The notes below the pieces were generated by a model. The model was not told the origin of the DNA and made no database searches. It saw nothing but the letters and a program-made list of their open reading frames with translations. DNA of 64,000 nucleotides, taken from positions 4,393,231 through 4,457,230 of the forward strand of contig OY787458.1 of the NCBI GenBank assembly GCA_963678915.1. The letters run 5' to 3'. Both the position numbers and the translations under genes were made by a program. Shown piece by piece: positions 15,346-61,530 of the stretch. The DNA comes from Prolixibacteraceae bacterium. GTDB taxonomy: Bacteria > Bacteroidota > Bacteroidia > Bacteroidales > Prolixibacteraceae. Within the stretch, counting starts at the first letter, position 1; each line of letters opens with the position of its first letter.

Positions 15346-15414
15346 CAAAGTTCACCAACATTCGAACCGAAAGTGTTACATAACTTTAACTATCTATTGT
15401 ATAATTCACACATT
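15346..15414 (-). promoter_or_regulatory. Island motif copy 1 + -7-like element (upstream of ompA/motB)
   Basis: aatgtgtgaattatacaat-N11-gttatgtaac-N21-gaactttg. Confidence 0.75.
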
Positions 15415-15469
15415 ATCAGTTTAGTTTTTGATAAGAGAGATTTTCCGGATCAGTAATGCTATAAAACCA

Positions 15470-15502
15470 AAAGAGGCTGAACTCGATTGAGCCAGCCTCT
15501 TT
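15470..15502 (-). terminator. Intrinsic terminator after the DUF4382 gene
   Basis: aaagaggctg...cagcctcttt hairpin followed by Ts on the minus strand. Confidence 0.7.
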
Positions 15503-15524
15503 ACCTGTTGTTGAAAAATCAAAC

Positions 15525-16322
15525 TTATAATAATATTGTAATTCCCAAATCGGTTGATGCTCCTACAACAACTGTCTTTCCAGTCAGTGTTATCGGAAGT
15601 AAAGGAAGAACAGGAGTGATCGTAATAATGTAGGTGCCTAAAGGCAAACCTGCAATAAGAAAACTACCGTTTGCAGCCGTTACAGTGGTATAGGTAACTC
15701 CATTTGATGTAGCTGATATCAATACATTTCCGGTAAGTGGCGAAACACTTCCTTTTATTGAACCCGAGATTGCAGTATCAATAGTCCGGATAACTGGTTT
15801 CAGCTGATATTCATTATTACCCGTAAGAACAATTGATTGGCTTGCATCAAAATCGAGAAGGATGGTGTATTCAACACCGGCTTCGAAGGTTTGATTAACC
15901 GCAAGTTTTAATCCCGATTGCATAGCGCTTGGTGTAGTTAATGGATATACAACACCTGCGACCTTTACAGAATTATTGGTTCCCAATATCAACCTGATTT
16001 GAGAAACAGTTCCTGCATTCAGACCACCTGTTGCAATCAGGGCGTTTACTCCGTTTGACAATTCAAGAAGATTGTAAACTTTAGCAGTAGTGTTAAGCAT
16101 AACTGCATTTCCTCTATCACCTGTTACTTCCACTCCCTGCACATCAACCATTACTGCATCGAAGTTTGCCGGGGCGTCAGTCATCCGAACTGTGAGTAGT
16201 GCTTGTTTGTCAGTTGTTGAGTCCTTGGTACATGATGTTATCTGCACGACCAGCAAGCCAACGAAGGCTACATAAATTAGCTTTTTCAGGATTGCGCTTT
16301 TGTTTCTTTGTAATGTTTTCAT
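15525..16322 (-). CDS. DUF4382-domain lipoprotein with C-terminal carboxypeptidase-regulatory-like domain
   Basis: Lipobox ITSC; VRMTDAP, VYNLLEL, SQIRLILG, SGLKL, LDFDASQSI, YQLKPVIR motifs. Confidence 0.85.
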   Translation of the reverse strand: MKTLQRNKSAILKKLIYVAFVGLLVVQITSCTKDSTTDKQALLTVRMTDAPANFDAVMVDVQGVEVTGDRGNAVMLNTTAKVYNLLELSNGVNALIATGGLNAGTVSQIRLILGTNNSVKVAGVVYPLTTPSAMQSGLKLAVNQTFEAGVEYTILLDFDASQSIVLTGNNEYQLKPVIRTIDTAISGSIKGSVSPLTGNVLISATSNGVTYTTVTAANGSFLIAGLPLGTYIITITPVLPLLPITLTGKTVVVGASTDLGITILL

Positions 16323-16357
16323 GTTTTCGTTTAAATGATATGTAAAAATTTACTCAA

Positions 16358-16425
16358 CAAAAGTGAAGCTTTAAGAAGGATTAATGTTATACAATATTGT
16401 TTTTGAATTGCATAATTCACACATT
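16358..16425 (-). promoter_or_regulatory. Island motif copy 2 + -7-like element (upstream of DUF4382 gene)
   Basis: aatgtgtgaattatgcaat-N11-attgtataac-N20-cacttttg. Confidence 0.75.
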
Positions 16426-16469
16426 ATCAAAGTGATTATTGGTAGTTAGTTTCAATTGTAAAAAAAGAA

Positions 16470-16499
16470 AGGTCGTCTCATTTATTAGTGAGACGACCT
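16470..16499 (-). terminator. Intrinsic terminator after the giant repeat gene
   Basis: aggtcgtctca-tttattag-tgagacgacct hairpin followed by TTCTTTTTT on the minus strand. Confidence 0.75.
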
Positions 16500-16536: not shown

Positions 16537-19500
16537 TTATTTTTTGTAAATAAGTCGGCCTGTCTGAACATTTCCATCAAGAATTAACCTGTAGATTAAA
16601 ATGCCAGGAACAACATTTATTGGCTGGTATTCGAGCTGGTTAACTGCTCCCATCTTAACATCTTTATCCATCAGGGTTGTAATCTTCTGGCCAAGAATGT
16701 TATTGATTTCGAGAACTGCATGGCTATCCTTAGCGGAAACAAATTCGAAAGTTACCTTATTCTGGAATGGATTTGGATAAACTTTCAGTGTACTGACTTC
16801 GAAGCCAGCAGGAGTAATTTGGGCAACTTTCGGAGCCTCCGGTGTAGTAGTTGGGCAAACGAGTTTTTGAGCATAGTATCCCATAAACAAACTGCATCCG
16901 TCGAATGCATTGTTAATTTGGTCAACTGCGCTGGCAATTGCTGTTAAGCTTGCACCTACTGTCATACCACCAAGAGCTCTGTTTGCGAGTTCGAATAATC
17001 CGGCAATGGTCTTATCTCCCGGTATTGCATTGATAATAGCCTGGTCAATCTGGAAGTAGCTGTAATTACAACCATCTACATTTGTAGTAGTTGATCCACA
17101 ACCTCCATCAGATTTTGCAGTTGCAATCCACATACCTGGCATTAATTCCAAATTACCCAGATTAATACTCATACCCAGGTTGAGACCTAAGGTAATTGTT
17201 TGAGCCAGTAATTTGTTATTAATCTTGGTCGTTTTACCCGTAGTTCTGGTATACAAGGTTTTAAATGCTGAACTGCTGATTGAGATATTACCGGCACTGA
17301 GTGCACCGATCCCGGCTCCACCAGGCAAATATTCAATAACCTTGCTGATATCGAGTGCAGAACTGGTTATAGAAATTGAATGACCAGCTTTCCCAATAAC
17401 CATAGTTCCACCGTACGAATTAATAGCGTGTTCGATTAATCCTGCGGTTGAGAACTGAGTTACACCATCGCATGACTTTCCTCCAGGATTTCCATAATAT
17501 CCCTGAGTATAAGTACAGATTGCCTGGCACGTTTTAACAGTGACATTTATACAGACTTCAGTAGAATTTCCACATTCGTCAGTAGCTATGAAACAAATCG
17601 GAGTGATGCCAACAGGATATTTATAATTATAAACATCTCCATTAACGCCATTGATTTTTGTGAAACGTTCAACCTGACCATCACAACCATCTATGAATAC
17701 TGGTTCTGGTATAATTACCTTTTCGTAGCATTCAAATACAAGGTCGGCTATTGGCTCTTGTAATTCAGGTCCGGTCAAATCAACTTTCCAGGTTACGGTA
17801 CGTGTTACCGGGGTAGCGGTGTTGCCGCAAAGGTCGGTAGCGTTCCATGTACGGGTCTGTGACTTGATACAGTCGCCTGTTACGGCACCATCGGTAAATG
17901 AAGGAACCAGAGCTCCGTCGCAAATATCCGAGGCAGTGGCTGTTCCCAAAGCGGCATTGATAGCAGCGGCATCAGGGTTACAACCAAGGGCTAAAGTAGT
18001 TCCTGTAGCTGCAATGACTGGTTTAACCAAATCAACTTTCCAGGTTACGGTACGTGTTACCGGGGTTGCGGTGTTGCCGCAAAGGTCGGTAGCGTTCCAT
18101 GTACGGGTCTGTGACTTGATACAGTCGCCTGTTACGGCACCATCGGTAAATGAAGGAACCAGAGCTCCGTCGCAAATATCCGAGGCAGTGGCTGTTCCCA
18201 AAGCGGCATTGATAGCAGCGGCATCAGGGTTACAACCAAGGGCTAAAGTAGTTCCTGTAGCTGCAATGACTGGTTTAACCAAATCAACTTTCCAGGTTAC
18301 GGTACGTGTTACCGGGGTAGCGGTGTTGCCGCAAAGGTCGGTAGCGTTCCATGTACGGGTCTGTGACTTGATACAGTCGCCTGTTACGGCACCATCGGTA
18401 AATGAAGGAACCAGAGCTCCGTCGCAAATATCCGAGGCAGTGGCTGTTCCCAAAGCGGCATTGATAGCAGCGGCATCAGGGTTACAACCAAGGGCTAAAG
18501 TAGTTCCTGTAGCTTCGATCACTGGTTTAACCAAATCAACTTTCCAGGTTACGGTACGTGTTACCGGGGTAGCGGTGTTGCCGCAAAGGTCGGTAGCGTT
18601 CCATGTACGGGTCTGTGACTTGATACAGTCGCCTGTTACGGCACCATCGGTAAATGAAGGAACCAGAGCTCCGTCGCAAATATCCGAGGCAGTGGCTGTT
18701 CCCAAAGCGGCATTGATAGCAGCGGCATCAGGGTTACAACCAAGGGCTAAAGTAGTTCCTGTAGCTGCAATGACTGGTTTAACCAAATCAACTTTCCAGG
18801 TTACGGTACGTGTTACCGGGGTAGCGGTGTTGCCGCAAAGGTCGGTAGCGTTCCATGTACGGGTCTGTGACTTGATACAGTCGCCTGTTACGGCACCATC
18901 GGTAAATGAAGGAACCAGAGCTCCGTCGCAAATATCCGAGGCAGTGGCTGTTCCCAAAGCGGCATTGATAGCAGCGGCATCAGGGTTACAACCAAGGGCT
19001 AAAGTAGTTCCTGTAGCTTCGATCACTGGTTTAACCAAATCAACTTTCCAGGTTACGGTACGTGTTACCGGGGTAGCGGTGTTGCCGCAAAGGTCGGTAG
19101 CGTTCCATGTACGGGTCTGTGACTTGATACAGTCGCCTGTTACGGCACCATCGGTAAATGAAGGAACCAGAGCTCCGTCGCAAATATCCGAGGCAGTGGC
19201 TGTTCCCAAAGCGGCATTGATAGCAGCGGCATCAGGGTTACAACCAAGGGCTAAAGTAGTTCCTGTAGCTTCGATCACTGGTTTAACCAAATCAACTTTC
19301 CAGGTTACGGTACGTGTTACCGGGGTTGCGGTGTTGCCGCAAAGGTCGGTAGCGTTCCATGTACGGGTCTGTGACTTGATACAGTCGCCTGTTACGGCAC
19401 CATCGGTAAATGAAGGAACCAGAGCTCCGTCGCAAATATCCGAGGCAGTGGCTGTTCCCAAAGCGGCATTGATAGCAGCGGCATCAGGGTTACAACCAAG

Positions 19501-22500
19501 GGCTAAAGTAGTTCCTGTAGCTGCAATGACTGGTTTAACCAAATCAACTTTCCAGGTTACGGTACGTGTTACCGGGGTTGCGGTGTTGCCGCAAAGGTCG
19601 GTAGCGTTCCATGTACGGGTCTGTGACTTGATACAGTCGCCTGTTACGGCACCATCGGTAAATGAAGGAACCAGAGCTCCGTCGCAAATATCCGAGGCAG
19701 TGGCTGTTCCCAAAGCGGCATTGATAGCAGCGGCATCAGGGTTACAACCAAGGGCTAAAGTAGTTCCTGTAGCTTCGATCACTGGTTTAACCAAATCAAC
19801 TTTCCAGGTTACGGTACGTGTTACCGGGGTAGCGGTGTTGCCGCAAAGGTCGGTAGCGTTCCATGTACGGGTCTGTGACTTGATACAGTCGCCTGTTACG
19901 GCACCATCGGTAAATGAAGGAACCAGAGCTCCGTCGCAAATATCCGAGGCAGTGGCTGTTCCCAAAGCGGCATTGATAGCAGCGGCATCAGGGTTACAAC
20001 CAAGGGCTAAAGTAGTTCCTGTAGCTGCAATGACTGGTTTAACCAAATCAACTTTCCAGGTTACGGTACGTGTTCCCGGGGTTGCGGTGTTGCCGCAAAG
20101 GTCGGTAGCGTTCCATGTACGGGTCTGTGACTTGATACAGTCGCCTGTTACGGCACCATCGGTAAATGAAGGAACCAGAGCTCCGTCGCAAATATCCGAG
20201 GCAGTGGCTGTTCCCAAAGCGGCATTGATAGCAGCGGCATCAGGGTTACAACCAAGGGCTAAAGTAGTTCCTGTAGCTGCAATGACTGGTTTAACCAAAT
20301 CAACTTTCCAGGTTACGGTACGTGTTACCGGGGTAGCGGTGTTGCCGCAAAGGTCGGTAGCGTTCCATGTACGGGTCTGTGACTTGATACAGTCGCCTGT
20401 TACGGCACCATCGGTAAATGAAGGAACCAGAGCTCCGTCGCAAATATCCGAGGCAGTGGCTGTTCCCAAAGCGGCATTGATAGCAGCGGCATCAGGGTTA
20501 CAACCAAGGGCTAAAGTAGTTCCTGTAGCTTCGATCACTGGTTTAACCAAATCAACTTTCCAGGTTACGGTACGTGTTACCGGGGTAGCGGTGTTGCCGC
20601 AAAGGTCGGTAGCGTTCCATGTACGGGTCTGTGACTTGATACAGTCGCCTGTTACGGCACCATCGGTAAATGAAGGAACCAGAGCTCCGTCGCAAATATC
20701 CGAGGCAGTGGCTGTTCCCAAAGCGGCATTGATAGCAGCGGCATCAGGGTTACAACCAAGGGCTAAAGTAGTTCCTGTAGCTTCGATCACTGGTTTAACC
20801 AAATCAACTTTCCAGGTTACGGTACGTGTTACCGGGGTTGCGGTGTTGCCGCAAAGGTCGGTAGCGTTCCATGTACGGGTCTGTGACTTGATACAGTCGC
20901 CTGTTACGGCACCATCGGTAAATGAAGGAACCAGAGCTCCGTCGCAAATATCCGAGGCAGTGGCTGTTCCCAAAGCGGCATTGATAGCAGCGGCATCAGG
21001 GTTACAACCAAGGGCTAAAGTAGTTCCTGTAGCTGCAATGACTGGTTTAACCAAATCAACTTTCCAGGTTACGGTACGTGTTACCGGGGTAGCGGTGTTG
21101 CCGCAAAGGTCGGTAGCGTTCCATGTACGGGTCTGTGACTTGATACAGTCGCCTGTTACGGCACCATCGGTAAATGAAGGAACCAGAGCTCCGTCGCAAA
21201 TATCCGAGGCAGTGGCTGTTCCCAAAGCGGCATTGATAGCAGCGGCATCAGGGTTACAACCAAGGGCTAAAGTAGTTCCTGTAGCTGCAATGACTGGTTT
21301 AACCAAATCAACTTTCCAGGTTACGGTACGTGTTACCGGGGTTGCGGTGTTGCCGCAAAGGTCGGTAGCGTTCCATGTACGGGTCTGTGACTTGATACAG
21401 TCGCCTGTTACGGCACCATCGGTAAATGAAGGAACCAGAGCTCCGTCGCAAATATCCGAGGCAGTGGCTGTTCCCAAAGCGGCATTGATAGCAGCGGCAT
21501 CAGGGTTACAACCAAGGGCTAAAGTAGTTCCTGTAGCTTCGATCACTGGTTTAACCAAATCAACTTTCCAGGTTACGGTACGTGTTACCGGGGTAGCGGT
21601 GTTGCCGCAAAGGTCGGTAGCGTTCCATGTACGGGTCTGTGACTTGATACAGTCGCCTGTTACGGCACCATCGGTAAATGAAGGAACCAGAGCTCCGTCG
21701 CAAATATCCGAGGCAGTGGCTGTTCCCAAAGCGGCATTGATAGCAGCGGCATCAGGGTTACAACCAAGGGCTAAAGTAGTTCCTGTAGCTGCAATGACTG
21801 GTTTAACCAAATCAACTTTCCAGGTTACGGTACGTGTTCCCGGGGTAGCGGTGTTGCCGCAAAGGTCGGTAGCGTTCCATGTACGGGTCTGTGACTTGAT
21901 ACAGTCGCCTGTTACGGCACCATCGGTAAATGAAGGAACCAGAGCTCCGTCGCAAATATCCGAGGCAGTGGCTGTTCCCAAAGCGGCATTGATAGCAGCG
22001 GCATCAGGGTTACAACCAAGGGCTAAAGTAGTTCCTGTAGCTTCGATCACTGGTTTAACCAAATCAACTTTCCAGGTTACGGTACGTGTTACCGGGGTAG
22101 CGGTGTTGCCGCAAAGGTCGGTAGCGTTCCATGTACGGGTCTGTGACTTGATACAGTCGCCTGTTACGGCACCATCGGTAAATGAAGGAACCAGAGCTCC
22201 GTCGCAAATATCCGAGGCAGTGGCTGTTCCCAAAGCGGCATTGATAGCAGCGGCATCAGGGTTACAACCAAGGGCTAAAGTAGTTCCTGTAGCTGCGATG
22301 ACTGGTTTAACCAAATCAACTTTCCAGGTTACGGTACGTGTTACCGGGGTAGCGGTGTTGCCGCAAAGGTCGGTAGCGTTCCATGTACGGGTCTGTGACT
22401 TGATACAGTCGCCTGTTACGGCACCATCGGTAAATGAAGGAACCAGAGCTCCGTCGCAAATATCCGAGGCAGTGGCTGTTCCCAAAGCGGCATTGATAGC

Positions 22501-27750: not shown

Positions 27751-27819
27751 CAAAAATACCACCTCCTCCTTTTGAAAATGTTACACAATTCTCGTTTTAA
27801 GTTACAAGATTCACACTTT
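27751..27819 (-). promoter_or_regulatory. Island motif copy 3a + perfect -7 element, facing the giant adhesin gene
   Basis: aaagtgtgaatcttgtaac-N11-attgtgtaac-N21-TATTTTTG. Confidence 0.75.
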
Positions 27820-27823
27820 TCGA

Positions 27824-27892
27824 AAAGTGTGAATCTTGTAACTTATTGCCAAAGTTATATAACACATTAGCAGATATATAAGACTACGTTTG
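27824..27892 (+). promoter_or_regulatory. Island motif copy 3b + perfect -7 element, facing the mla operon
   Basis: aaagtgtgaatcttgtaac-N11-gttatataac-N21-TACGTTTG; forms a perfect 42-bp palindrome (27801-27842) with copy 3a. Confidence 0.8.
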
Positions 27893-29554: not shown

Positions 29555-29573
29555 ACATCAAAAACATACCATT

Positions 29574-30293: not shown

Positions 30294-30318
30294 AAATAAA
30301 TCCGGAACAAAATGGCAA

Positions 30319-34571: not shown

Positions 34572-34640
34572 CAAAGATGAGCGTGTTAATCCCTGAATAG
34601 TTTACACAATTTCAGCAAAAAGTTACATGATTCACAGGTT
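34572..34640 (-). promoter_or_regulatory. Island motif copy 4 + -7-like element (upstream of L,D-transpeptidase)
   Basis: aacctgtgaatcatgtaac-N11-attgtgtaaa-N21-catctttg. Confidence 0.7.
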
Positions 34641-43000: not shown

Positions 43001-43069
43001 TAAATGTGCGATAAATGAAATCAATTTGTATTATACAATTCCCGATTTTGTTTGCATAATTCACACATT
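43001..43069 (-). promoter_or_regulatory. Island motif copy 5 + -7-like element (upstream of HEAT gene/tamBA)
   Basis: aatgtgtgaattatgcaaa-N11-attgtataat-N21-cacattta. Confidence 0.7.
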
Positions 43070-46687: not shown

Positions 46688-46756
46688 TAAAAGTAATGAT
46701 TAATGCCTGGTAACTAGTTACATAATTCTGTAAATAAGTTACATGATTAACACATT
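46688..46756 (-). promoter_or_regulatory. Island motif copy 6 + -7-like element
   Basis: aatgtgttaatcatgtaac-N11-attatgtaac-N21-tactttta. Confidence 0.75.
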
Positions 46757-47289: not shown

Positions 47290-47362
47290 AGTTATGGCCT
47301 TTAAAACAAATAAAGTTTTCATGAATAGGATTGGAAACCAGGCCATAAAGCTATAATTGTTG

Positions 47363-47710
47363 CTATTCGCTCTGATCTTCTTCCAGATCGTTATGGTCAT
47401 CTCCACCTAAACTGTAATAGTTGTTTTCTTCGTCTTCACTTCCAATATTTTCCTGAATGTCATCCAGCTCAGATCCAGGAACATCTAAATTGCTGAAATA
47501 CTCAGGGTTGCTTAATTTTTTTTGTTTATTAGGGTCGACGATATTCACTTCGACAGGCGCTTTTTTCGCCGAAGTGTCTTCCGGATCAATGTCTTTTTCT
47601 TCCGTGTATTGATTGTAAATATCATCGCAAGCAGAATATTCAGGATATCCAGGCAGAATATTTTCAGCCGTGCTGTTTCCCTGATTTGTATTGCTGCTCT
47701 TGTCTTTCAT
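47363..47710 (-). CDS. Small acidic hypothetical protein
   Basis: LPGYPEY...DIY and LDVPGSELDDIQENIGSEDEENNYYSLGGD; typical of Bacteroidetes stress islands. Confidence 0.65.
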   Translation of the reverse strand: MKDKSSNTNQGNSTAENILPGYPEYSACDDIYNQYTEEKDIDPEDTSAKKAPVEVNIVDPNKQKKLSNPEYFSNLDVPGSELDDIQENIGSEDEENNYYSLGGDDHNDLEEDQSE

Positions 47711-47731: not shown

Positions 47732-47800
47732 CTAAGTTAAGCACTTGAATAAGGGAAACTGTTACACAACTTTTGGAAAGAGTTACATGATTCACACATT
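47732..47800 (-). promoter_or_regulatory. Island motif copy 7 + -7-like element; overlaps the AraC-1 stop codon
   Basis: aatgtgTGAatcatgtaac-N11-gttgtgtaac-N21-taacttag. Confidence 0.8.
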
Positions 47801-48352
47801 CTCGAGTGAAGTACGTCGGTTAAGCTTGAGACGTTTGTAGGTAGAAGGTGTTAACCCGGTCAATTTTTTGAATTGGTTCGACAGATGAGCGGTGCTGCTG
47901 AAATGTAATGTGTAGGCAATCTCGCTAATGTTCATTTCATCGTAAAGCAGCAATTCTTTCACTTTTTCAATTCGGTGAGTGAGTAGAAAATGTTCGATGC
48001 TTATACCCTGATTTTCTGAAAAAATGTTGGCCAGGTAAGTATAGTCGTACTTTAGTTTTTCGCTTAAATAAACGGAGAAGTTAATTTTTATTTGTTTTTC
48101 GGTATAGTGTACCAGTTCAATGATTGTATTTTTTATTTGCTCGATCAGGATGCTGTTATGGTCGCTGATAATTGAAAGACCTGATTTTAAAAGTTCATCA
48201 TTTAGTTGGGTTAGTTGCTCAGGTGATGGGGTTTCCATAATCTCCACTTCGCCCAAAGCCACCAAAATGTAATGGAGCTCAAGCTTTTCAATCTCTGATT
48301 TTACGAGCATTTTGCAGCGATCACTTACCATATTTTTGATGTGGAGTTTCAT
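47792..48352 (-). CDS. AraC-family regulator 1 with N-terminal HMA-like domain (MVSDRC)
   Basis: MKLHIKNMVSDRC N-terminus; YLANIFS, ISEIAYTLHFSSTAHLSNQFKKLTGLTPS double HTH; ORF track starts at 48361. Confidence 0.9.
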   Translation of the reverse strand: MKLHIKNMVSDRCKMLVKSEIEKLELHYILVALGEVEIMETPSPEQLTQLNDELLKSGLSIISDHNSILIEQIKNTIIELVHYTEKQIKINFSVYLSEKLKYDYTYLANIFSENQGISIEHFLLTHRIEKVKELLLYDEMNISEIAYTLHFSSTAHLSNQFKKLTGLTPSTYKRLKLNRRTSLENV

Positions 48353-48471: not shown

Positions 48472-49017
48472 TTAAAAGTTCGAAATATCGATTACCGACA
48501 AAAGGCATTTCTGATCATCATCGGTAACAATACCTTCCATATAAACATGACAAAGTGGTTTATTGTCGTACCCCAACTTTACCTTACACGATTCTTTGCC
48601 GGGGACGGCATACACTTTCCTGAAAAATTCATTAAAAACAGTCCGCGATTCTTCAGAAACGAACAATTTAAAATTGCTGTTGATCAGGCTGAAACGCTTT
48701 CCGCCCAATAAATCAGCGCCGGTAAAATTCAACTCGCAAATACTTCCGTTGCTATCAAGTGTAAAATAGCCCATAGGAGCCAGATCGTATAACATGGTGT
48801 ATTTTCGAAGGGCTGTTTCTGCTGTTTCATAGGCTTTCCTTAATTCTTCGTTTTGCATTTCCAACTCAATTTGATGAACCTGTAATTCGTGCAGAAGTCT
48901 TGCTTCATCTCCCTTCAAATACGAAGGTGTCGCTTTTTTTTGTTCCGCCAGCAAAAGTTTTTCTTCGGCTTTTTGGCGTAACAATTGAGCATCAGTTAAA
49001 TCATTTTCGTCGTACAT
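48472..49017 (-). CDS. Stand-alone coiled-coil + PAS protein
   Basis: LHELQVHQIELEMQNEELR coiled coil, then YDLAPMGYFTLD...NFTGADLLG PAS; ends without a kinase domain. Confidence 0.8.
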   Translation of the reverse strand: MYDENDLTDAQLLRQKAEEKLLLAEQKKATPSYLKGDEARLLHELQVHQIELEMQNEELRKAYETAETALRKYTMLYDLAPMGYFTLDSNGSICELNFTGADLLGGKRFSLINSNFKLFVSEESRTVFNEFFRKVYAVPGKESCKVKLGYDNKPLCHVYMEGIVTDDDQKCLLSVIDISNF

Positions 49018-49021
49018 GGCT

Positions 49022-51934
49022 TTATTGTTTATTGGTTAAAATCATTCCAAAAGGTAGTTTTTCGTGGTTGCGCAGTATGTTTATCGACCATTTAATGGTT
49101 GGATTTGTTCCATCAGCTGTTACGACCGGTATTTTAAATTGGTTATCCTGACCTTCGCCAAGCAGTTTTTTCAACTCTTTTTCAACCCTTTTTTGCTCCG
49201 GTTCCGGAACAAATGCCTTGATAAAATATTGTTCCAGTGCACTTTCTCTTTTCTTCCCCAGAAACCTTTCAGCTTTGTTGTTCAGTTCAACAATTTTCAG
49301 TTCCGACGAAAGTTTAATGATAACATCTGATACTGAATCTAAAAGAATGCGATTCAACTGCTCTGCCTCAATTAATTTGACTTCCATCTGCTTGAGATCG
49401 GAAATGTTGATAAACGTAATAACCAGTCCATCAATACGATCGTCGAAAGTACGATAGGGCATAATGCGGATGGAAAACCATCGTCCATCGTTGGTTGAAA
49501 TTTGTTTTTGAATAAATACCAGGGTACGCAACACTTCGAGGGCATCTTCGGCCAGGTTGGGGTAATTCAAATCAGAAACCTGGTCGGTAAAAGGCCTGCC
49601 AATGTCGCTTTTGATGAGTTTGAAAATTTGGGTGGTTTGGTTGGTGTAGCGGCGTATATTTAATTCTTTGTCGAGGAACAGAGTGGCAATGTCGGTGCTG
49701 TTTAGCAAGTTCTTCATGTCGTTGTTCACTCTCGAGAAATCGTCAACTTTCGATTGTAATTCAGCATTTACAGTCTGAAGTTCTTCATTCAGACTTTGCA
49801 TTTCTTCTTTCGAAGTGGTCAGTTCTTCATTGGTCGATTGCAGCTCTTCGTTGGTTGATTGCAATTCCTCATTGGCCGATTTTAGTTCTTCCTGCGAAGT
49901 CTGCATTTCTTCCAGCGTGCTCTGCATGGTTTCGCGAGCGTGCTCTAATTCTTTTTCCAACTCCGATTGCTTAATACTACTGACCGTTCTTCGGTAGGCT
50001 TCTGGTTTATCACTGTATGCTTCGTGAACATCAGAAAAAACCACCAGAATCATACCTCTCAACGTTTCAGGCTTGTCAATCCACTGAATGGTCACATCAA
50101 GGGTTTGTGAACTTCCATTTGTACCAACCCTCAGGTGATGTAACACTTCTTTTCCTTTAGTTGTCAGCGCTTTGCGAAAAGCAAATGGAAATTCATTCCG
50201 TAAACCGTCGCGTAGCATGGCAAAGATGTTCAGGTTAGCTTTCCCCGTAGCCGGCTCCAGGTATTTCCCGGTTCGTCCGCTGATGTAAATGATATCGCCA
50301 TTTTCGTTAACTAAAACGGCAGGAGGCGAAAAGTGCTGCAACAACAATTGTTCGGCAGGCGATTGAATATTTGCAGGTAGTTTGCTTGGCATTTGAATTT
50401 CGGGATTGGTCAATTTAGCTCGTGAAAATGAGGAGGGAAAATCGAATAGTTCAGGAATTAAGTTGGTAGTTGAACGTTTATACAATTTTAATTTTGAATC
50501 GATGGTAGTGAAAAGCGGAGCCTGAGACCCCAACGTTTCGGAACTACCCAGCAGCATAATTCCATCAGGATTAAGGCTATAGTAAAATAATCCAATCAGT
50601 TTCTTCTGTAGCTCAGTATCCATGTATATTAGCAGGTTACGGCAAGTCAGAATATCTATTTTGGTGAATGGGGGGTGCATAATGATGTTGTGCTGTGCAA
50701 ACACAATCATTTCGCGTATTTCAGTATTGATTCTGTAGCCATCTTCTGTTTTGATGAAAAAGCGATTCAATCGGGCAGGAGAGACGTCGGAAATTATATT
50801 TGCTGGAAAGTGTCCTTTCCTGGCTGTTTCTATGGCATCGCTATCCAGATCGGTTGCAAATATTTGCAGGGTAATCCCTCCTTGCGGATTCACTTTTTCA
50901 ATCACTTCCTTTACCACAATGGCCAGTGAATATGCTTCTTCGCCGGTTGAGCATCCCGGCACCCAGGCTCTTATTACTGTACCTTCTTTTAAGTTGGTTA
51001 GAATGATTGGCAATACCTGCTCTTTCAGTTTTTCCCAAACCGGGGCATCGCGAAAGAAGTTGGTAACACCAATCAGTAATTCTTTGAAAAGTATATCTAC
51101 TTCTACCTGATTTTCCTGCAGGAAATGGACATACGAAATGATCTTATCAATTTTATGAATGCCCATGCGCCTTTCTATACGGCGGTATAAAGTGTTTTTT
51201 TTATAAAGCGAAAAATCATTCCCGGTATGAGCACGTAGCAGGATAATAATTTTTTCGAGGGCATTTTTTTCTTTGGTGTCTGTATCTACATCGGATTTAA
51301 GTGCTGGAGTCTGTTTAATCAAATCGATAAGCCTGGCAGGCAGTTCGTTGGCTGGAGCGATAATGTCGGCCAATACCGAGTCGATGGCATTACGGGGCAT
51401 ACTGTCGAATTTTGCCGATTCAGGAGTTTGTACCATCACAATTCCATTGCTCTCTTTTATGGCATGTAAGCCAATGCTGCCATCGGAACCCATTCCTGAA
51501 AGAATGATTCCGACACTTTGTTCTTTTTGGTCGATAGCCAGCGAACGCAGAAAGAAATCAATTGGTAGCCGAAGGCCCCTGATTTCCAATGGATCAAACA
51601 GGTATAATACACGTTTTAAAATCGACATGCTTTTGTTGGGCGGAATAACATATACACAGTTGGACTTTACAACCATATGATCTGTTACCTGAAAAACCTG
51701 CATTTTGGATACCCTCTGAAGCAATTCGGGTAGCATCCCTTTTTGGGTTGGATCGAGATGCTGAATGACAATATATGCCATACCGCTGTTTTCGGGCACA
51801 TTAGCCAGAAATTGTTCCAATGCTTCGAGCCCGCCGGCCGAAGCGCCAATACCAACTATGGGAAACGAACCAATATCCGATTCTGTATTCTTATCGTTTA
51901 AAGGAATCGCCGATTTTTGCTTTTCAGGTTTCAC
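49022..51934 (-). CDS. CheB methylesterase-CheR methyltransferase fusion with coiled coil and PAS domains
   Basis: CheB triad GASAGG/QHLDP/GMGSDG; CheR motifs CSTGEEAYS, ATDLD, CRNLLIY; NEELQS heptads; C-terminal PAS; no kinase domain. Confidence 0.92.
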   Translation of the reverse strand: MKPEKQKSAIPLNDKNTESDIGSFPIVGIGASAGGLEALEQFLANVPENSGMAYIVIQHLDPTQKGMLPELLQRVSKMQVFQVTDHMVVKSNCVYVIPPNKSMSILKRVLYLFDPLEIRGLRLPIDFFLRSLAIDQKEQSVGIILSGMGSDGSIGLHAIKESNGIVMVQTPESAKFDSMPRNAIDSVLADIIAPANELPARLIDLIKQTPALKSDVDTDTKEKNALEKIIILLRAHTGNDFSLYKKNTLYRRIERRMGIHKIDKIISYVHFLQENQVEVDILFKELLIGVTNFFRDAPVWEKLKEQVLPIILTNLKEGTVIRAWVPGCSTGEEAYSLAIVVKEVIEKVNPQGGITLQIFATDLDSDAIETARKGHFPANIISDVSPARLNRFFIKTEDGYRINTEIREMIVFAQHNIIMHPPFTKIDILTCRNLLIYMDTELQKKLIGLFYYSLNPDGIMLLGSSETLGSQAPLFTTIDSKLKLYKRSTTNLIPELFDFPSSFSRAKLTNPEIQMPSKLPANIQSPAEQLLLQHFSPPAVLVNENGDIIYISGRTGKYLEPATGKANLNIFAMLRDGLRNEFPFAFRKALTTKGKEVLHHLRVGTNGSSQTLDVTIQWIDKPETLRGMILVVFSDVHEAYSDKPEAYRRTVSSIKQSELEKELEHARETMQSTLEEMQTSQEELKSANEELQSTNEELQSTNEELTTSKEEMQSLNEELQTVNAELQSKVDDFSRVNNDMKNLLNSTDIATLFLDKELNIRRYTNQTTQIFKLIKSDIGRPFTDQVSDLNYPNLAEDALEVLRTLVFIQKQISTNDGRWFSIRIMPYRTFDDRIDGLVITFINISDLKQMEVKLIEAEQLNRILLDSVSDVIIKLSSELKIVELNNKAERFLGKKRESALEQYFIKAFVPEPEQKRVEKELKKLLGEGQDNQFKIPVVTADGTNPTIKWSINILRNHEKLPFGMILTNKQ

Positions 51935-52205
51935 GTTTTAGTGTTTATTTTTTGCGGAAATGCCAGAGGTGTATATTCCCGTTAGGTCTTATACAAATTA
52001 ACTGAAATAATATCACATTTTTACAGCAAACGAGAGCGATCTGTTTAACTATACCTGCCAATATTCAGACTTGCCTTTTCAAAGTAATATCCTATTTCTT
52101 ACGAAGACGAATATTGTTTTCATTTCAGATTTATTTAGGTGATACTTTTATTATCCGCTTGGTCCAAATTTTACTGTTTAACTCGTAACCCTGGCGAAAT
52201 ACCGA

Positions 52206-53114
52206 TTAAATATAATGTGGCAGGGTAAATTTAAATTTGCTCCCTTTACCAGGTTCGCTCTCTACCCAGATATTTCCGCCATGCATATCAATAAATTCCT
52301 TGCAAAACAAAAGACCTAACCCAGTACCCTGTTCATTACAAGTACCAGATATTGAATTAAATTCATCAATTTTAAAGAGCTTTTCTTTAGTGCTTTGCGA
52401 CATTCCAATGCCATTATCCCTGACTTCTATTTTCACAAACTTTTTACCTTCGGTTGCTACAATATGTATATGGCCACCTGTATTAGTATATTTAATGGCA
52501 TTGCTAATCAGATTTCTGAGTATGGTTTTTACCATTTCATAGTCGGCAGTTACATGTATATTGAGGGCAATCGATTGATCGATATCGATTTGTTTAAGGG
52601 CTGCAGAGGTATTAAAACATACAATTTCGTTGATTACTAATTCGCGCAGGTTAATCTTAATAGGGTTGAAGGTTTTCTCTATATTTTGTGCCATCGACCA
52701 TGTTAAAAGGTTTTCAAGAAGATTTAATGCTTTAATTGCTGAATTTGTTGCAGTATTTAGGAGTTGCTTAATTTCTGTTTTATTCCAATCATCAAAACTT
52801 TCGTTTAATAAACCAAGTATAGTTATGGTTGTGGCGAATGGATTTCTCAAGTCGTGCGCCACAATCCTCAGGAATCTGGTATTTGAAGCAATGGCTTCAG
52901 TCAGTTTCTTTCTTGCATCTTCTAAAAGTTCTTCCAGATGAGCATTTTTTTCTTCCATCTTTTGTAAACTCAACAACAATGGTTTATACTGCTCGGTCAT
53001 TAGGCGGGTATTCTTTGCCGAAGTCACTGCTGGATTAGCTTTACCATTGATACTACGAACAGGTTTGCTTTCAGACCCCACATTGTTTAAAATATCGTGT
53101 TGTTTAGTGTTCAT
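52206..53114 (-). CDS. Cytoplasmic histidine kinase lacking an obvious sensor domain
   Basis: AHDLRNP H-box, NLISNAIKY, DNGIG, GTGLGL. Confidence 0.9.
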   Translation of the reverse strand: MNTKQHDILNNVGSESKPVRSINGKANPAVTSAKNTRLMTEQYKPLLLSLQKMEEKNAHLEELLEDARKKLTEAIASNTRFLRIVAHDLRNPFATTITILGLLNESFDDWNKTEIKQLLNTATNSAIKALNLLENLLTWSMAQNIEKTFNPIKINLRELVINEIVCFNTSAALKQIDIDQSIALNIHVTADYEMVKTILRNLISNAIKYTNTGGHIHIVATEGKKFVKIEVRDNGIGMSQSTKEKLFKIDEFNSISGTCNEQGTGLGLLFCKEFIDMHGGNIWVESEPGKGSKFKFTLPHYI

Positions 53115-53125
53115 AGTGTTGAATA

Positions 53126-53686
53126 TTAATTGCTTATCGGAATACTATTCCGGAGGTTGCGGAGTTGCCTGAAATACGACGGAGACAAACCTGTTTCACG
53201 TTGAAACTGGTTCAACAATGATGCAGTGCTACTGTAATGCATCATTAGGGCAATTTCGTTTAAGCTCATATCCCCGTAAACCAGCATCTCCTTTATCCGT
53301 TCAATTTTCTGTTTAATGATGTACTTCTCGATTGTAATACCTTCTATTTCAGTGAATAATTTATTAAGAGAAATAATGTTGTCGTCAACATTTAACTGAA
53401 TGAAATCGGAAAAACTGGTTTTTAAATTCTCATCCGAATAATGCTCTAAATCATTAACTGACTTTTTGAGTTTCTCGATTAGCTCATATTTAGAGTCATC
53501 AATAAGCTCAAATCCGCATAACTGTAAGGCGGCAGAAAACTGTAACCGCTGACCAATGGAAATTTCATCTTTTGTATTCACCTCTCCAATTTTTACTGTA
53601 TCATACTGAATACCAATTTTATCGAGTTCAGATTTTACAGTTGCTTTACAACGATTGCAAACCATATATTTAACATAGAGCTTCAT
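53126..53686 (-). CDS. AraC-family regulator 2 with N-terminal HMA-like CxxC (MVCNRC)
   Basis: MKLYVKYMVCNRC; EGITIEKY, LNEIALMMHYSS...QFQRETGLSPS. Confidence 0.88.
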   Translation of the reverse strand: MKLYVKYMVCNRCKATVKSELDKIGIQYDTVKIGEVNTKDEISIGQRLQFSAALQLCGFELIDDSKYELIEKLKKSVNDLEHYSDENLKTSFSDFIQLNVDDNIISLNKLFTEIEGITIEKYIIKQKIERIKEMLVYGDMSLNEIALMMHYSSTASLLNQFQRETGLSPSYFRQLRNLRNSIPISN

Positions 53687-55706: not shown

Positions 55707-55775
55707 TAAATTTGAGCACTTAAAATTCAGAAAGTGTTACACAATTGTGTTAAAGAATTGCATCATTCACACATT
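55707..55775 (-). promoter_or_regulatory. Island motif copy 8 + -7-like element
   Basis: aatgtgtgaatgatgcaat-N11-attgtgtaac-N21-caaattta. Confidence 0.75.
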
Positions 55776-55835: not shown

Positions 55836-56018
55836 TTAAAGCGATTCGATTATTTTAGCCAGCTCCAGTTTTGTTATTCCGAGCTTGTACTCAAGCATTT
55901 CAATCATTTCTTTTTCCTTCCCTTCCTGAAAGCTTAAATCCTGATCATTTAAGGATGGAAATCTTTGCTTGATTTTATCTTTTTTGCTGTCCCAATATCC
56001 TAAAACAGTCGTTTCCAT
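55836..56018 (-). CDS. csbD: CsbD-like general stress protein
   Basis: GYWDSKKDKIKQRFPSLNDQDLSFQEGKEKEMIEMLEYKLG. Confidence 0.75.
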   Translation of the reverse strand: METTVLGYWDSKKDKIKQRFPSLNDQDLSFQEGKEKEMIEMLEYKLGITKLELAKIIESL

Positions 56019-56056: not shown

Positions 56057-56125
56057 TGAAATTAGGGGATTTACTTTTCATTCAGGTTATATAATTCTGC
56101 GAAAAAATTACATATTTCACACATT
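56057..56125 (-). promoter_or_regulatory. Island motif copy 9 + -7-like element (upstream of csbD; touches the GH stop codon)
   Basis: aatgtgtgaaatatgtaat-N11-attatataac-N21-taatttca. Confidence 0.72.
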
Positions 56126-58617: not shown

Positions 58618-58747
58618 TTGTGCAAATTTTTGTAATATTTCTTAAAATCAGCGTATTAATATATCCTCATTATCTGACTGTTGCAACAGGATGGAATAGC
58701 CATTTATTTACTTCCGGTTGGTGCGGACTTTGGCACACATGGCTATT

Positions 58748-59392
58748 TCATAGAATGGCTCCTTTTTTATTAATTCTTCGTTTTATTTCTGTAGGATCAG
58801 TAAATTTCCAGAAAGCTTCAGCTTTGGGTGTGGTTTTGGCCTCCCAGCCATCTTCATCAAATCCATAGGTTTCGGTTATCAGTTTGTATTTTTGTTGCCA
58901 GGTTGTTTTTGAAAGTATAATGCAAACCGATGCATTTTTAACAGCTAATGGGAAATACTTCTTGTGTCCATCTTCATAAGCAAAGAACCAAAGTTCGCTG
59001 GTCGATAATTTTCCCGATTTCCAAAGTTCTGTAACAGCTCTGCTTATCTCTTCGTGACGAAGATGCCGGGTATATTCTCCGTCAGGACTATGTGTAATTA
59101 CCAGGTCGAAATGCGCTGAAGGCAATAATTTTACGATCAGCACTTCAAGCTCTTTTTCATTGAGAGGCGTCTGTTCTGGGCCGTCATCCAGATCGCCCAT
59201 GATTCCTTCAGCATTTAATATTTTCATTGCGTTGTAAAACTTTGGAGCGCGCTCGGTATCGCTTCCGCGACAAAGGCAAACAACACAGAACTTCCACGAT
59301 GGATTGTTTAATATTGTTCCTCCGGCCCATAAGGTTTCGTCGTCAGGATGTGCCACGATAACAGCAACGTTTTTTGTCTCGCGTTTGTCCAT
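58748..59392 (-). CDS. PIG-L/LmbE family deacetylase
   Basis: VAHPDDETLWAGG metal motif; THSPDGEYTRHLRH. Confidence 0.85.
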   Translation of the reverse strand: MDKRETKNVAVIVAHPDDETLWAGGTILNNPSWKFCVVCLCRGSDTERAPKFYNAMKILNAEGIMGDLDDGPEQTPLNEKELEVLIVKLLPSAHFDLVITHSPDGEYTRHLRHEEISRAVTELWKSGKLSTSELWFFAYEDGHKKYFPLAVKNASVCIILSKTTWQQKYKLITETYGFDEDGWEAKTTPKAEAFWKFTDPTEIKRRINKKGAIL

Positions 59393-59405
59393 TTTATTTG
59401 ACTGC

Positions 59406-59804
59406 TTACAGATGGTATTCTGATGGATTAAAAAACTCTTTTAAAAATTCATGTTGTTCGTTTTCTGTCATTTTATCAGCTGGTTTAACCACAATATTTA
59501 TTTTTTCGAAGAGGTGATTCTCTTTCAGTATGTTAGCTAATTCATTTTTTGCTTCGGTTGGCCCAAAAAGAATCACTTCTTCATAACCTAAACTGGCGTC
59601 GCTCAATTTTTTGTAATATGCAGAAAGCTGGCCTTGTTCTTTGCTAAGCAGGTGACTATCGTCCTTATAATGCAAATCTCCGGCATTCATCGGAATAACC
59701 AGTTTCGATTCGATTACCCTTGTAGCAAAGGCTCCTCCATGCAATTCGGTCAAATGTGCAACGGAATGATCCATCCATATCCCCAATATTTTTCTTGTTT
59801 TCAT
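59406..59804 (-). CDS. Host-attachment / bacterial archaeo-eukaryotic release-factor-like protein
   Basis: MKTRKILGIWMDHSVAH...EVILFGPTEAKNEL...MTENE; start moved from 59945, which overlaps the upstream gene. Confidence 0.7.
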   Translation of the reverse strand: MKTRKILGIWMDHSVAHLTELHGGAFATRVIESKLVIPMNAGDLHYKDDSHLLSKEQGQLSAYYKKLSDASLGYEEVILFGPTEAKNELANILKENHLFEKINIVVKPADKMTENEQHEFLKEFFNPSEYHL

Positions 59805-59818
59805 CTCGAGTGTATTTA

Positions 59819-61318
59819 TTATTGATTCTTGGTTGAATTTGTAAGTCCATATACTGTTCGGAAATGGTAGCCATACACGGCAAAGGTTAAAGCATCGGTT
59901 AAAAGAGTCGGGCGCCTGAAAAGCGTCCATATCAGAAGTTTCCAATATTCGCTCCGTCCTTTATTCACAATACCGATAATTATGACCGATTTGATAAACC
60001 CAATAAGGAATGGAAAATCGCGTGTTTGCCGCCCTGCATGTAGTTTTTTATAGTTGAGTAAAAATTGACGAATTCTTTTGTAATAGGGTTTTGCCGAATA
60101 GATGTTTTGTATAATCTTTTTATACCCCTGCAACAGCTCTGATGAATCCATTTTGGGAACAAAATTCATGGAAGAATCGGTGTTGTTTCCCGATGATTCG
60201 TTCGTTAAACGGTTTTCGGCTTTTAGCCGTTTGTAAAGCACTGTGTTTTTAGGCGCATTTAACAGGCCAACCATGGCCGAAACAATTCCGCTCTGCTGAA
60301 TAAAATCGATTTGCTTTTGAAAGACCGAGGGCGTATCCGTATCAAAACCTACAATAAATCCGCCGGAAACCTGTAACCCGGCATTTTGTATTTTTTTCAC
60401 GCTGTGAAGCAGGTCCCTGTTTTTGTTTTGAGCCTTATTACATTCCTGGAGTGAATCTTCATCAGGGGTTTCGATGCCCACAAATGTTGAGGTAAATCCG
60501 GTTTCTGCCATCATTGCCATCAATTCCTCATCGTCGGCCAGGTTAATCGAGGATTGAATATTGAAAGTGAACGGATATTTGTGGCTCTGCATCCATTGCC
60601 TCATGGCCGGTAGTAAGTATTTCTTGACTTCAAACTTATTCCCTATAAAATTATCGTCAACAATGAGTATAGGGCCGCGCCAGTTCAAACTATAAAGAAC
60701 TTCAAGCTCAGCGATAATCTGGCTGGTATTTTTCATGCGGACCTTATGCCCTAAAAGCGACGTTATTTCGCAAAAATCGCAGGAGAAAGGGCATCCGCGC
60801 GAAACCTGAAGATTCATCACCACATAATCTTTTGCAGAAAGCAGGTGGTAGTCGGGAACCGGCGATTTTGTTACATCAGCAAATGCATCTGTTCGATAAA
60901 CTCTTTCAGGAATTTTTTGCGTTGCCAAATCATTCAGAAACAAAGGCATTGTAATTTCAGCCTCGTTTAGTATAAAATGGTCAACTTGAGGATAGCTCTC
61001 AAAATCCTGGGTAAACAAAGGTCCGCCGGCAATAATTTTGGTCTCATATTTCAGGCACTCTTCAATAACATGATCAACCGATTCTTTTTGAATATACATG
61101 GCGCTAATAAATACATAATCAGCCCAGAGAATGTCAATTTTCTGCAAAGCTGAAACATTAAGGTCAACCAGTTTCTTTTTCCACATTTTTGGAAGCATGG
61201 CTGAAACGGTAATTAATCCAAGAGGAGGTACCGTTGCTTTTTTTGCGATGAACTGCATGGCATGCTTAAAACTCCAGAACGAATCGGGGTATTGAGGATA
61301 TACTAATAAGATATTCAT
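59819..61318 (-). CDS. B12-binding radical SAM protein (DUF4070 C-terminus)
   Basis: PPLGLITV B12 domain; SRGCPFSCDFC; DDNFIGN; FIVGFDTD. Confidence 0.9.
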   Translation of the reverse strand: MNILLVYPQYPDSFWSFKHAMQFIAKKATVPPLGLITVSAMLPKMWKKKLVDLNVSALQKIDILWADYVFISAMYIQKESVDHVIEECLKYETKIIAGGPLFTQDFESYPQVDHFILNEAEITMPLFLNDLATQKIPERVYRTDAFADVTKSPVPDYHLLSAKDYVVMNLQVSRGCPFSCDFCEITSLLGHKVRMKNTSQIIAELEVLYSLNWRGPILIVDDNFIGNKFEVKKYLLPAMRQWMQSHKYPFTFNIQSSINLADDEELMAMMAETGFTSTFVGIETPDEDSLQECNKAQNKNRDLLHSVKKIQNAGLQVSGGFIVGFDTDTPSVFQKQIDFIQQSGIVSAMVGLLNAPKNTVLYKRLKAENRLTNESSGNNTDSSMNFVPKMDSSELLQGYKKIIQNIYSAKPYYKRIRQFLLNYKKLHAGRQTRDFPFLIGFIKSVIIIGIVNKGRSEYWKLLIWTLFRRPTLLTDALTFAVYGYHFRTVYGLTNSTKNQ

Positions 61319-61461
61319 AATTAGTGTTTTTATCTATTGCATAACAGCATCCTTTGTAAATGAGAATTAATCAACTACAGAAGGAGGCTCATATTGCAAG
61401 TATTGAGAATGCTTGTAAAAAGAGAAAGTTCCCTTAGGGAATTGTGGGATAAATCATGTTG

Positions 61462-61530
61462 AAAAGATAAAAAGACACCGTCTGAAAAGTATTACACAAT
61501 TATTTGAAAAACTTATATAATTCACACATT
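61462..61530 (-). promoter_or_regulatory. Island motif copy 10 + -7-like element (upstream of the radical SAM operon)
   Basis: aatgtgtgaattatataag-N11-attgtgtaat-N21-tatctttt. Confidence 0.72.

Follow-up and report, generated by a model that had tools for sequence, protein, structure and literature searches.

A 42-bp tandem-repeat operator linked to a small AraC-type regulator marks a putative general-stress and envelope programme of the Bacteroidota

A 64,000-nucleotide stretch of contig OY787458.1 of a Prolixibacteraceae bacterium (assembly GCA_963678915.1; the whole stretch is referred to here as the window) carries the same bipartite 42-nt motif, in short form AATGTGTGAATnATGTAAC-N10-AATTGTGTAAC, eleven times. 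This raises the question of what these copies are and which protein, if any, reads them. Sequence comparison indicates that they are real promoter control sites conserved throughout the Bacteroidota, in many orders, and that a small AraC-type regulator probably switches the genes bearing them on. We consider it likely that each copy forms the upstream half of an activator-dependent σA promoter, bound most probably by a protein of the type of AraC1, which is encoded in the window, in the manner of class II activation, and that these promoters serve a general-stress regulon.

The motif had been reported in a first-pass annotation made from the letters of the window alone, and all eleven copies were recovered at the positions given there. 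When up to three mismatches were allowed, the distal half AATGTGTGAATYATRYAAY matched the window exactly 11 times, with ten matches on the minus strand and one on the plus strand (27824), while dinucleotide-preserving shuffles gave a mean of 0.30 and a maximum of 3 matches for this 19-mer. Aligned in gene orientation the 11 copies require no gap (consensus AAtGTGTGAATnATGtAAyTt-N8-aAaTTgTgTAACa) and their TGTAAC-like hexamers are spaced by exactly 21 bp in 11 of 11 cases. The heptamer RTGTAAC occupies motif positions 13-19 and 34-40, again gap-free, in these copies and in sets of 219 and 163 copies from elsewhere. With a 42-nt position weight matrix (PWM), leave-one-out scores of the 11 copies ranged from 29.5 to 49.9 bits, and the next-best position on either strand of the 64 kb scored -11 bits. 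Given this gap between at least 29.5 and -11 bits, the window holds exactly 11 copies, none of them degenerate and none within 1-14 kb. Mismatch search, alignment and PWM therefore confirm the copy number and the 21-bp spacing first reported, and the scan of both strands confirms the reported absence from the first 14 kb. It had also been stated that every copy is aimed at a downstream gene, and this was found to be so, with predicted leaders of 17-36 nt for nine copies, 139 nt for a radical-SAM gene and 842 nt for an adhesin gene (Table 1).

The distribution of the motif extends well beyond the window. Species-representative genomes were scanned with a degenerate form that matches 10 of the 11 window copies, and at least 120 loci were obtained, about 113 of the matches listed being labelled as Bacteroidota. 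Among the matches listed were Bacteroidales, Marinilabiliales-type families, Chitinophagales, Saprospirales, Cytophagales, Flavobacteriales and Lentimicrobiaceae. Three Clostridia-type records among them look like chance matches, and one contig labelled Polyangiaceae is probably mis-binned, as it carries the AraC gene and three motif copies. Applied to the motif-selected loci listed, the PWM of the window found 219 sites scoring 25 bits or more, spread over 114 loci. Cultivable carriers include Flavobacterium micromati DSM 17659, Dysgonomonas sp. ZJ279, Carboxylicivirga sp. RSCT41, Ferruginibacter sp. SUN106 and Galbibacter sp. EGI 63066. In all, 409 sites were collected, and these are the basis of the consensus tests reported below.

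Each window copy is followed at motif positions 62-69 by an octamer, its distance from the proximal TGTAAC being 21 nt in ten copies and 20 nt in the remaining one. As first noted, it is a perfect TAnnTTTG in two copies, both at 27.8 kb. In a start-site atlas of F. psychrophilum the σA box TAnnTTTG is placed at -12 to -5 (PMC9723704). In this register the predicted transcription start site (TSS) is motif position 74. The operator then covers -73 to -33, its two 21-bp units having their centres near -63 and -42, and the proximal repeat spans about -44 to -34. The proximal repeat would thereby fall on the -33 position. This supports the original proposal to that effect; the TAAC of the proximal repeat occupies the slot, and a -33 element of the TTG or TTTG kind, 19-21 nt before the -7 box, was found in 0 of 409 sites. 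The tRNA-Lys promoter cited with that proposal reads GGTTTG-N19-TACCTTTG.

The box also shows in columns which lie outside the search pattern and the PWM. An A stands at position 63 in 197 of 219 sites, and T is found at positions 66, 67 and 68 in 214, 213 and 189 of them, respectively. Among 163 sites that were never selected by pattern search, the -7 box stands at offset 0 in 125 and at -1 in 22, and an A..TTT box at the fixed offset was found in 365 of the 409 collected sites (89%). The start codon is mostly 50-80 nt downstream of the motif. Since it lies upstream of the -7 box, the operator would not be transcribed from its own promoter, and an Rfam scan of the whole window at gathering thresholds, conducted with an RNA element in mind, gave no match at any motif copy.

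These features bear on whether the element could be read by a dedicated alternative sigma factor, with TGTAAC serving as a -35-like hexamer. The -35 elements of extracytoplasmic function (ECF) sigma factors typically contain AAC, as TGTAAC does, Bacteroidota encode many such factors, and an ECF sigma gene stands behind the motif in three loci. However, the downstream box is of the σA type, A..TTT(G), and is spaced as in σA and not as in ECF promoters (the conserved A stands 22 nt from the C of TGTAAC), and AAC-N16/17-CGT was present in only 2 of 409 sites. Moreover, conservation reaches 40 nt upstream, to about -73 and far past the footprint of a sigma factor, and no sigma gene is enriched nearby, so that recognition by an alternative sigma is very unlikely. 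A σ54 site was also sought and fitted 0 of the 409 sites.

The same geometry speaks to the direction of control. The protein bound here might instead repress or silence the promoters: Bacteroidota promoters can run on the -7 box alone, so that the -7 boxes here might suffice for basal transcription, and some AraC-family proteins are dual regulators. Against this, the whole operator precedes the -7 box, at -73 to -33, and the distance between the two stays within ±1 bp in 147 of 163 sites, a rigid phasing which is expected where a protein contacts RNA polymerase and which repression does not need. The first T of the -7 box, at -12, is weakly conserved, being present in 74 of 219 sites in one set and in 41 of 163 in the other (roughly one site in three or four), which fits weak promoters needing help. 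The rigid phasing, -7 boxes that depart from consensus and a proximal repeat in the place of the -33 element thus favour activation, and repression is very unlikely.

The window encodes two AraC-family paralogs, AraC1 and AraC2, and the first-pass annotation had taken one or both of them as the simplest choice of activator. These small paralogs, with the N-terminus MKLxxKxMV(C/S)xRC, are the best candidate regulators. The co-occurrence suggested there as a check is strongly positive in both directions. Starting from the motif, AraC1 orthologs were found in 27 of the 120 motif-selected loci listed (845 kb in total), 22 of them full-length with 38-64% identity over all 186 residues and five cut by a contig end. 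De novo clustering of all open reading frames (ORFs) of these 120 loci gave the AraC family, present in 24 loci, as the sole recurring DNA-binding family, the next candidate being an ECF sigma in three. Starting from the regulator, all four loci fetched via AraC1 homologs carried the motif, as did 70 of 80 metagenome loci chosen by AraC homology alone. Over the 467 kb of these AraC-selected loci, 158 sites scored 20 bits or more, where composition-preserving shuffles predict 0.1.

The linkage is in many cases one of physical overlap. Among the 80 AraC-selected loci there are 35 in which motif and AraC stop codon overlap, 34 of them sharing an identical offset. A further 15 have the motif 40-200 nt before the start of AraC, an arrangement that suggests autoregulation. 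In the window the last codons of AraC1 are GAG-AAT-GTG-TGA (E-N-V-stop), of which AAT-GTG-TGA forms the first 9 nt of the operator (47792-47800). The C-terminal LENV of the AraC1 family is conserved although disordered, because it is encoded together with block A of the operator. The same fusion of stop codon and operator occurs at 10553-10561 in loci L121-L123. The gene behind the fused operator varies, with a 115-aa protein in the window and a cupin or radical-SAM gene elsewhere. Taken together, the assignment to AraC has strong comparative support.

This support has to be weighed against a reading in which the operator is real but is bound by another, unlinked factor (for example a response regulator, of the LytTR type or otherwise, or a member of the Crp/Fnr group), AraC being only a conserved member of the regulon that looks autoregulated. 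LytTR regulators bind direct repeats of a similar period (21-22 bp) overlapping the -35 region, the distal block contains TGTGA, which is half a CRP site, sensor kinases are common near the motif, and single-domain receivers stand behind it in a few loci. None of the 409 sites, however, fits a tandem LytTR site, two 9-bp direct repeats [TA][AC][CA]GTTN[AG][TG] with a 12-13-bp spacer, or the Crp and Fnr palindromes TGTGA-N6-TCACA and TTGAT-N4-ATCAA. The distal unit is asymmetric, and its centre, which would be the CRP spacer, is highly conserved. LytTR, Crp/Fnr and other DNA-binding families do not recur in the 120 motif-selected loci listed, whereas AraC is present in 24-27, and the fusion to the AraC stop codon at one fixed offset is repeated in 34 independent metagenome loci. 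Control by an unlinked factor is on these grounds rather unlikely.

AraC1 is a member of the AraC/XylS family by virtue of its two-helix-turn-helix (two-HTH) C-terminal domain of about 100 aa (Pfam HTH_18, E 2.7e-18; HTH_AraC, E 9.7e-10), and AraC1 and AraC2, which share 38% identity, each possess a complete DNA-binding domain of this kind. Profile matches to the PDB over residues 75-177 of AraC1 were to YesN, XylR, AraC and SoxS. An AlphaFold2 model (mean predicted local distance difference test score, pLDDT, 90; predicted TM-score, pTM, 0.82) shows a βαββαβ domain at residues 1-62, a long helix at 65-83 and a seven-helix AraC domain. With Foldseek the C-terminal domain matched AraT, YesN, AdpA, MarA, GadX, AraC, SoxS and Rob (target TM 0.71-0.83 to MarA, AdpA, GadX and AraC), and the N-terminal domain matched, more weakly, the HMA metallochaperones GolB, CopZ and Atx1. 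A cupin-type N-terminal domain is typical of the AraC/XylS family without being obligatory, and in AraC1 its place is taken by the HMA-like fold. The former metal-binding loop reads M-V-(S/C)-x-R-C, its second cysteine (Cys13) being near-invariant and the first being present in AraC2, which has the full CxxC, and in some others. This domain is likely a sensing or dimerisation module, and its signal is perhaps thiol/redox- or metal-based. The AraC1 family comprises at least 8,000 protein matches, the best 120 clusters having at least 63% identity and mostly the same length. Its named members come from Prolixibacteraceae, Sunxiuqinia, Puia and Galbibacter, and all protein names are generic.

From these observations the following mechanism is proposed. 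The 42-bp element, made up of two direct repeats (A/G)TGTAAC, each preceded by AAT, with a 21-bp period and an extra distal TGTGAA block, keeps a rigid spacing to a -7 box with the form nAnnTTTG and would be bound by the conserved 186-aa AraC1, possibly together with AraC2. Two DNA-binding domains would lie in tandem, head to tail, on the two 21-bp units. The arrangement would be that of class II activation, known for AraC at araI1-I2 and for XylS at Pm, with the proximal domain in contact with RNA polymerase. The gene of the regulator would itself be a target. Motif, geometry, conservation, gene content and genomic linkage are matters of observation, and from them we infer binding, activation rather than repression, the stoichiometry and the exact start sites.

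Several points weigh against this scheme. Many Bacteroidota promoters work without a recognisable -33 element, so the absence of one does not by itself prove that an activator is needed. A model with two protomers is not forced by the sequence, as the proximal 21-bp unit contains a single conserved block. Ten of the 80 AraC-selected loci lack the motif, several of them being very short, and the same linkage would arise if AraC were the most conserved regulon member under an unlinked factor. Metatranscriptome contigs of relatives (Logan; soil, wastewater and groundwater) are only weakly consistent with the predicted starts. Contig ends were found at 55681 and about 55683 (predicted TSS 55702), about 56046 (predicted 56052) and 15325 (predicted 15341), so that three or four ends lie 6-21 nt inside the predicted starts, and none of these enters the operator. 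One contig, on the other hand, reads through the OmpA promoter to 15384, which is 43 nt beyond the predicted start.

The OmpA promoter also offers a small footprint-like signal. Related strains in run X1 carry five substitutions across it, and all fall at low-information positions of the motif (27, 45, 48, 49 and 62). For the 14300-15600 region this run holds the window at 100% together with contigs of several relatives at 85-95% identity, which indicates that the sample is a mixture or an enrichment.

A further element was observed exactly at the predicted +1 in loci outside the window. This is a palindrome, GTGAAAAT-nn-ATTCAC, often followed by AATTAAA, at motif positions 74-92. Of 220 sites 16 carry it, where about 1 would be expected (L001, L002, L004, L005, L039, L049, L051, L058, L071, L087, L106 and others), most of them preceding canonical csbD genes, and it does not occur in the window. 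As RNA it would form a weak 5'-terminal hairpin (-4.2 to -6.2 kcal/mol), and as DNA it is an inverted pair of the block-A TGTGAA.

The genes behind the motif were examined for a common theme. In the window nearly all of the co-directional gene array between 14 and 62 kb lies behind one or other of the 11 promoters, and the families adjacent to the motif elsewhere repeat those of the window. Further motif-linked members (Pfam, NCBIfam) are the lmo0937/DUF5670 and Thivi_2564 membrane proteins, YtxH, BON, ferritin/Dps, S30AE/HPF-like proteins, a CbpM-like MerR protein, β-barrel outer membrane proteins, ice-binding-like surface proteins and a small cupin. Generic stress protectants (CsbD/YjbJ-like, YtxH, BON, ferritin/Dps, Usp, OmpA and others) are thus well represented among the motif-linked genes. 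The general-stress and envelope content proposed for the window is therefore supported there and elsewhere. By their content these genes appear to form a phylum-wide general-stress and envelope programme, the induction of which is a prediction.

Comparable gene sets are under the control of σB, σS or σEcfG in other phyla. The overlap with the regulons of σB (Firmicutes), σS (Gammaproteobacteria) and PhyR-NepR-σEcfG (Alphaproteobacteria) is striking and includes CsbD/YjbJ, YtxH, BON/OsmY-like, Dps/ferritin, Usp, HPF/RaiA-like, CbpA/CbpM-like and OmpA-like proteins. Those regulons are defined by an alternative sigma factor, whereas the promoters described here keep the housekeeping σA -7 box and apparently depend on an activator. 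To our knowledge Bacteroidota possess neither σS nor σB, and no definition of how they mount a general stress response was found in the literature searched. It is possible, and we suggest it only tentatively, that most free-living Bacteroidota use the HMA-AraC protein, acting on its 42-bp operator, as the master switch of their general stress response. A class II activator together with the housekeeping sigma would then take the place of alternative sigma factors, with sensing through the degenerate HMA fold and perhaps with a cupin acting in trans.

This last suggestion comes from a stand-alone Cupin_2 protein of 116 aa, which is the most frequent gene product behind the AraC-linked promoter elsewhere (12244-12594 in L122/L123, and about 30 other loci). 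It has weak similarity to the AraC ligand-binding domain (PF02311, E 0.008), and its gene is absent from the window. The protein may supply the missing AraC cupin in trans, which is put forward as a lead and not as a finding.

Candidate signalling genes stand between the two araC genes of the window, and of 40 AraC-selected loci at least 5 kb long, 15 have PAS or histidine kinase genes close to AraC. A link between CheB-CheR and AraC had been implied from the window. The CheB-CheR fusion does lie between the araC genes there, but it is near AraC in only 2 of these 40 loci. An obligatory CheB-CheR partner is rejected on account of this rarity, and an apparent 34-locus cluster proved to be a single-linkage merger of PAS and histidine kinase proteins. 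No receiver domain is present in AraC, and any role of the PAS, CheB-CheR and kinase genes in the pathway would be hypothetical.

The regulon had initially been described as island-wide and portable, and this part of the description is not borne out, as motif and regulator are conserved across many Bacteroidota orders. A tRNA-Lys gene (4880-4953) is followed by a tyrosine integrase gene (the two at 4.9-6.5 kb), a type I restriction-modification (R-M) system and an IS3 element, and recognisably mobile genes end at about 12.6 kb. No attR, that is no repeat of the tRNA-Lys 3' end, was found in the 64-kb window, and the composition is flat from 4 to 64 kb, without a step, except for the adhesin repeats. 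With no attR, no compositional step and conservation across the phylum, a portable programme is unsupported. The attL/attR repeat and the foreign composition of an integrative island spanning the regulon were not seen within the window, and an element longer than the window is possible. The R-M system (6685-12641) has its hsdM and hsdS separated by genes for a HigB-like toxin and an IrrE/HTH (M78) protein. The IS3-family transposase (two ORFs) lies directly behind it, and hsdR is absent from the window.

Eleven near-identical 42-mers within 47 kb, beside an integrase, IS3 and R-M segment, might also be taken for a mobile promoter cassette, or for remnants resembling miniature inverted-repeat transposable elements, scattered in one island and sharing no regulation. 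This is effectively refuted. Among the 11 window copies no conservation was found in the sequence flanking the motif and the -7 box, which argues that they are not a dispersed or mobile repeat, and terminal repeats are lacking. The same element precedes the same gene families in more than 100 genomes of different orders, and the missing attR and flat composition tell equally against a cassette.

By analogy, then, activation by AraC1 would be a variant of a well-known mechanism, that of an AraC/XylS activator on tandem direct repeats. As at araI1-I2 and Pm, a two-HTH regulator would act on two direct-repeat half-sites with a 21-bp period, the proximal one over the -35 (here -33) region. The likeness to AraC/XylS class II promoters drawn initially is supported. 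In contrast to those systems, the operator sequence is unrelated, the polymerase would be the Bacteroidota σA form with a -7 and not a -10 box, and the regulator has an HMA-like βαββαβ domain and no cupin domain for ligand binding or dimerisation. The operator is also unusually rich in information (30-50 bits) and serves dozens of promoters rather than one operon.

MarA, SoxS and Rob offer a second comparison for the putative activator AraC1, as small AraC-family activators with a dispersed stress-defence regulon. They are structurally the closest to its DNA-binding domain (MarA 1bl0/1xs9, SoxS 7w5w, Rob 1d5y), and sites in their regulons occur at class I and class II positions. MarA and SoxS differ in consisting of the DNA-binding domain only and in binding as monomers to a single degenerate 20-bp marbox, where the present system has two units and an additional N-terminal domain. 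The asymmetric marbox AYnGCACnnWnnRYYAAAY matched 0 of 409 sites on either strand.

Within the Bacteroidota, the PM2 promoter class of B. thetaiotaomicron has boxes centred at -10 and -30, is attributed to an alternative sigma factor and is associated with stationary-phase and oxidative-stress genes (PMC7366714). It resembles the present promoters in being an alternative, stress-linked class in this phylum (PMC7366714), whereas the element described here spans -73 to -33 and keeps the σA -7 box, the two being set apart by described geometry only. No description of the motif, of its regulator or of a Bacteroidota general-stress regulon of this kind was found in the full-text literature and the Bacteroidota start-site atlases, a search which did not extend to subscription journals, where a prior description is possible. 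What appears to be new is the domain architecture of the regulator, an operator of this size and sharpness, the overlap of that operator with the stop codon of the regulator and the apparent role as a general-stress switch.

Bacteroidota are dominant in soils, waters, sediments and guts. A single candidate regulator family is of interest in this setting; its homologs number in the thousands and share 60-70% identity between orders. The sharp operator permits the regulon to be predicted from sequence alone in any Bacteroidota genome or metagenome-assembled genome. The geometry between operator and box gives an exact prediction of the transcription start. If the scheme is correct, genetic tools for this phylum, in which standard promoters fail, would gain a promoter module that is tightly specified and probably inducible. 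The scheme would also give a regulatory context to DUF4382, DUF6600, DUF5670, Thivi_2564, the B12-radical-SAM/DUF4070 glycosyl cluster and the small cupin.

The promoters of the window, their predicted targets and the candidate regulators are collected in Table 1. As an operator heads the array that includes AraC2 and AraC1 (55707-55775), the regulators would be autoregulated in the window also.

Table 1. Operators with their -7 boxes, predicted transcription start sites and predicted targets, and candidate regulatory genes of the window (operator, motif positions 1-42)
Feature	Coordinates	Strand	-7 box	Predicted TSS	Predicted targets or remarks
Operator and -7 box	15346..15414	-	GAACTTTG	~15341	OmpA-family gene 14522-15319 (Pfam OmpA), probably also 14004-14525
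Operator and -7 box	16357..16425	-	CACTTTTG, offset -1, (C)ACTTTTG	~16352	DUF4382 lipoprotein gene 15525-16322
Operator and -7 box	27751..27819	-	TATTTTTG, perfect	~27746	3455-aa repeat adhesin 16537-26904, after the 842-nt leader
Operator and -7 box	27824..27892	+	TACGTTTG, perfect	~27897	MlaE/MlaF/MlaD and a 615-aa gene (27921-32166)
Operator and -7 box	34572..34640	-	CATCTTTG	~34567	YkuD L,D-transpeptidase gene 33261-34550
Operator and -7 box	43001..43069	-	CACATTTA	~42996	HEAT-repeat gene 42420-42971, then TamB 37349-42337, TamA/Omp85 (ORF to 34646)
Operator and -7 box	46688..46756	-	TACTTTTA	~46683	Small secreted protein (46341-46658/46682), possibly M1 peptidase 43109-46180
Operator and -7 box	47732..47800	-	TAACTTAG	~47727	115-aa gene (47363-47710) and Usp (46804-47406)
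Operator and -7 box	55707..55775	-	CAAATTTA	~55702	Head of co-directional array 55666 down to 47792: 114-aa gene, DUF6600, AraC2, HisKA-HATPase kinase, CheB-CheR-PAS, PAS, AraC1
Operator and -7 box	56057..56125	-	TAATTTCA	~56052	60-aa CsbD/YjbJ-like gene (55836-56018)
Operator and -7 box	61462..61530	-	TATCTTTT	~61457	B12-radical-SAM/DUF4070 gene 59819-61318, then 179-aa ORF, PIG-L, GT1, GH (to 56125)
AraC1	47792..48352	-			Candidate activator, 186 aa from MKLHIK
AraC2	53126..53686	-			AraC1 paralog, second candidate regulator or partner
Candidate signalling genes between the araC genes	48472..53114	-			PAS 48472-49017; CheB-CheR-PAS-PAS 49022-51934; HisKA-HATPase kinase 52206-53114

A number of individual features of the window deserve mention. 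The two operators at 27779-27864 stand back to back with zero bases between their arms and form a 43-nt inverted repeat which is 81% complementary, with identical distal halves. From this pair the adhesin would be driven leftward and mlaEFD rightward. Between the predicted TSS and the start of the adhesin lies an 842-nt AT-rich stretch (26905-27746, minus strand) with no ORF of more than 42 aa and no Rfam match, which may be a long leader, an unannotated RNA or the result of a mis-called start. The adhesin itself (16537-26904) consists of about 40 near-identical tandem repeats of about 75 aa and a C-terminal sorting-type domain; its GC content is 0.52, compared with 0.40 around it, and a long spurious ORF runs opposite to it (17819-25417).

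An RNA family was matched at 36977-37021 (minus strand), namely Acido-Lenti-1 (RF01687), with two clean hairpins and a score of 44.2 bits against a gathering threshold of 37. This family was described from Acidobacteria and Lentisphaerae. The match falls within the first ~100 codons of the long ORF assigned to TamA, and the real tamA start is therefore probably downstream, with the RNA motif lying between tamB and tamA.

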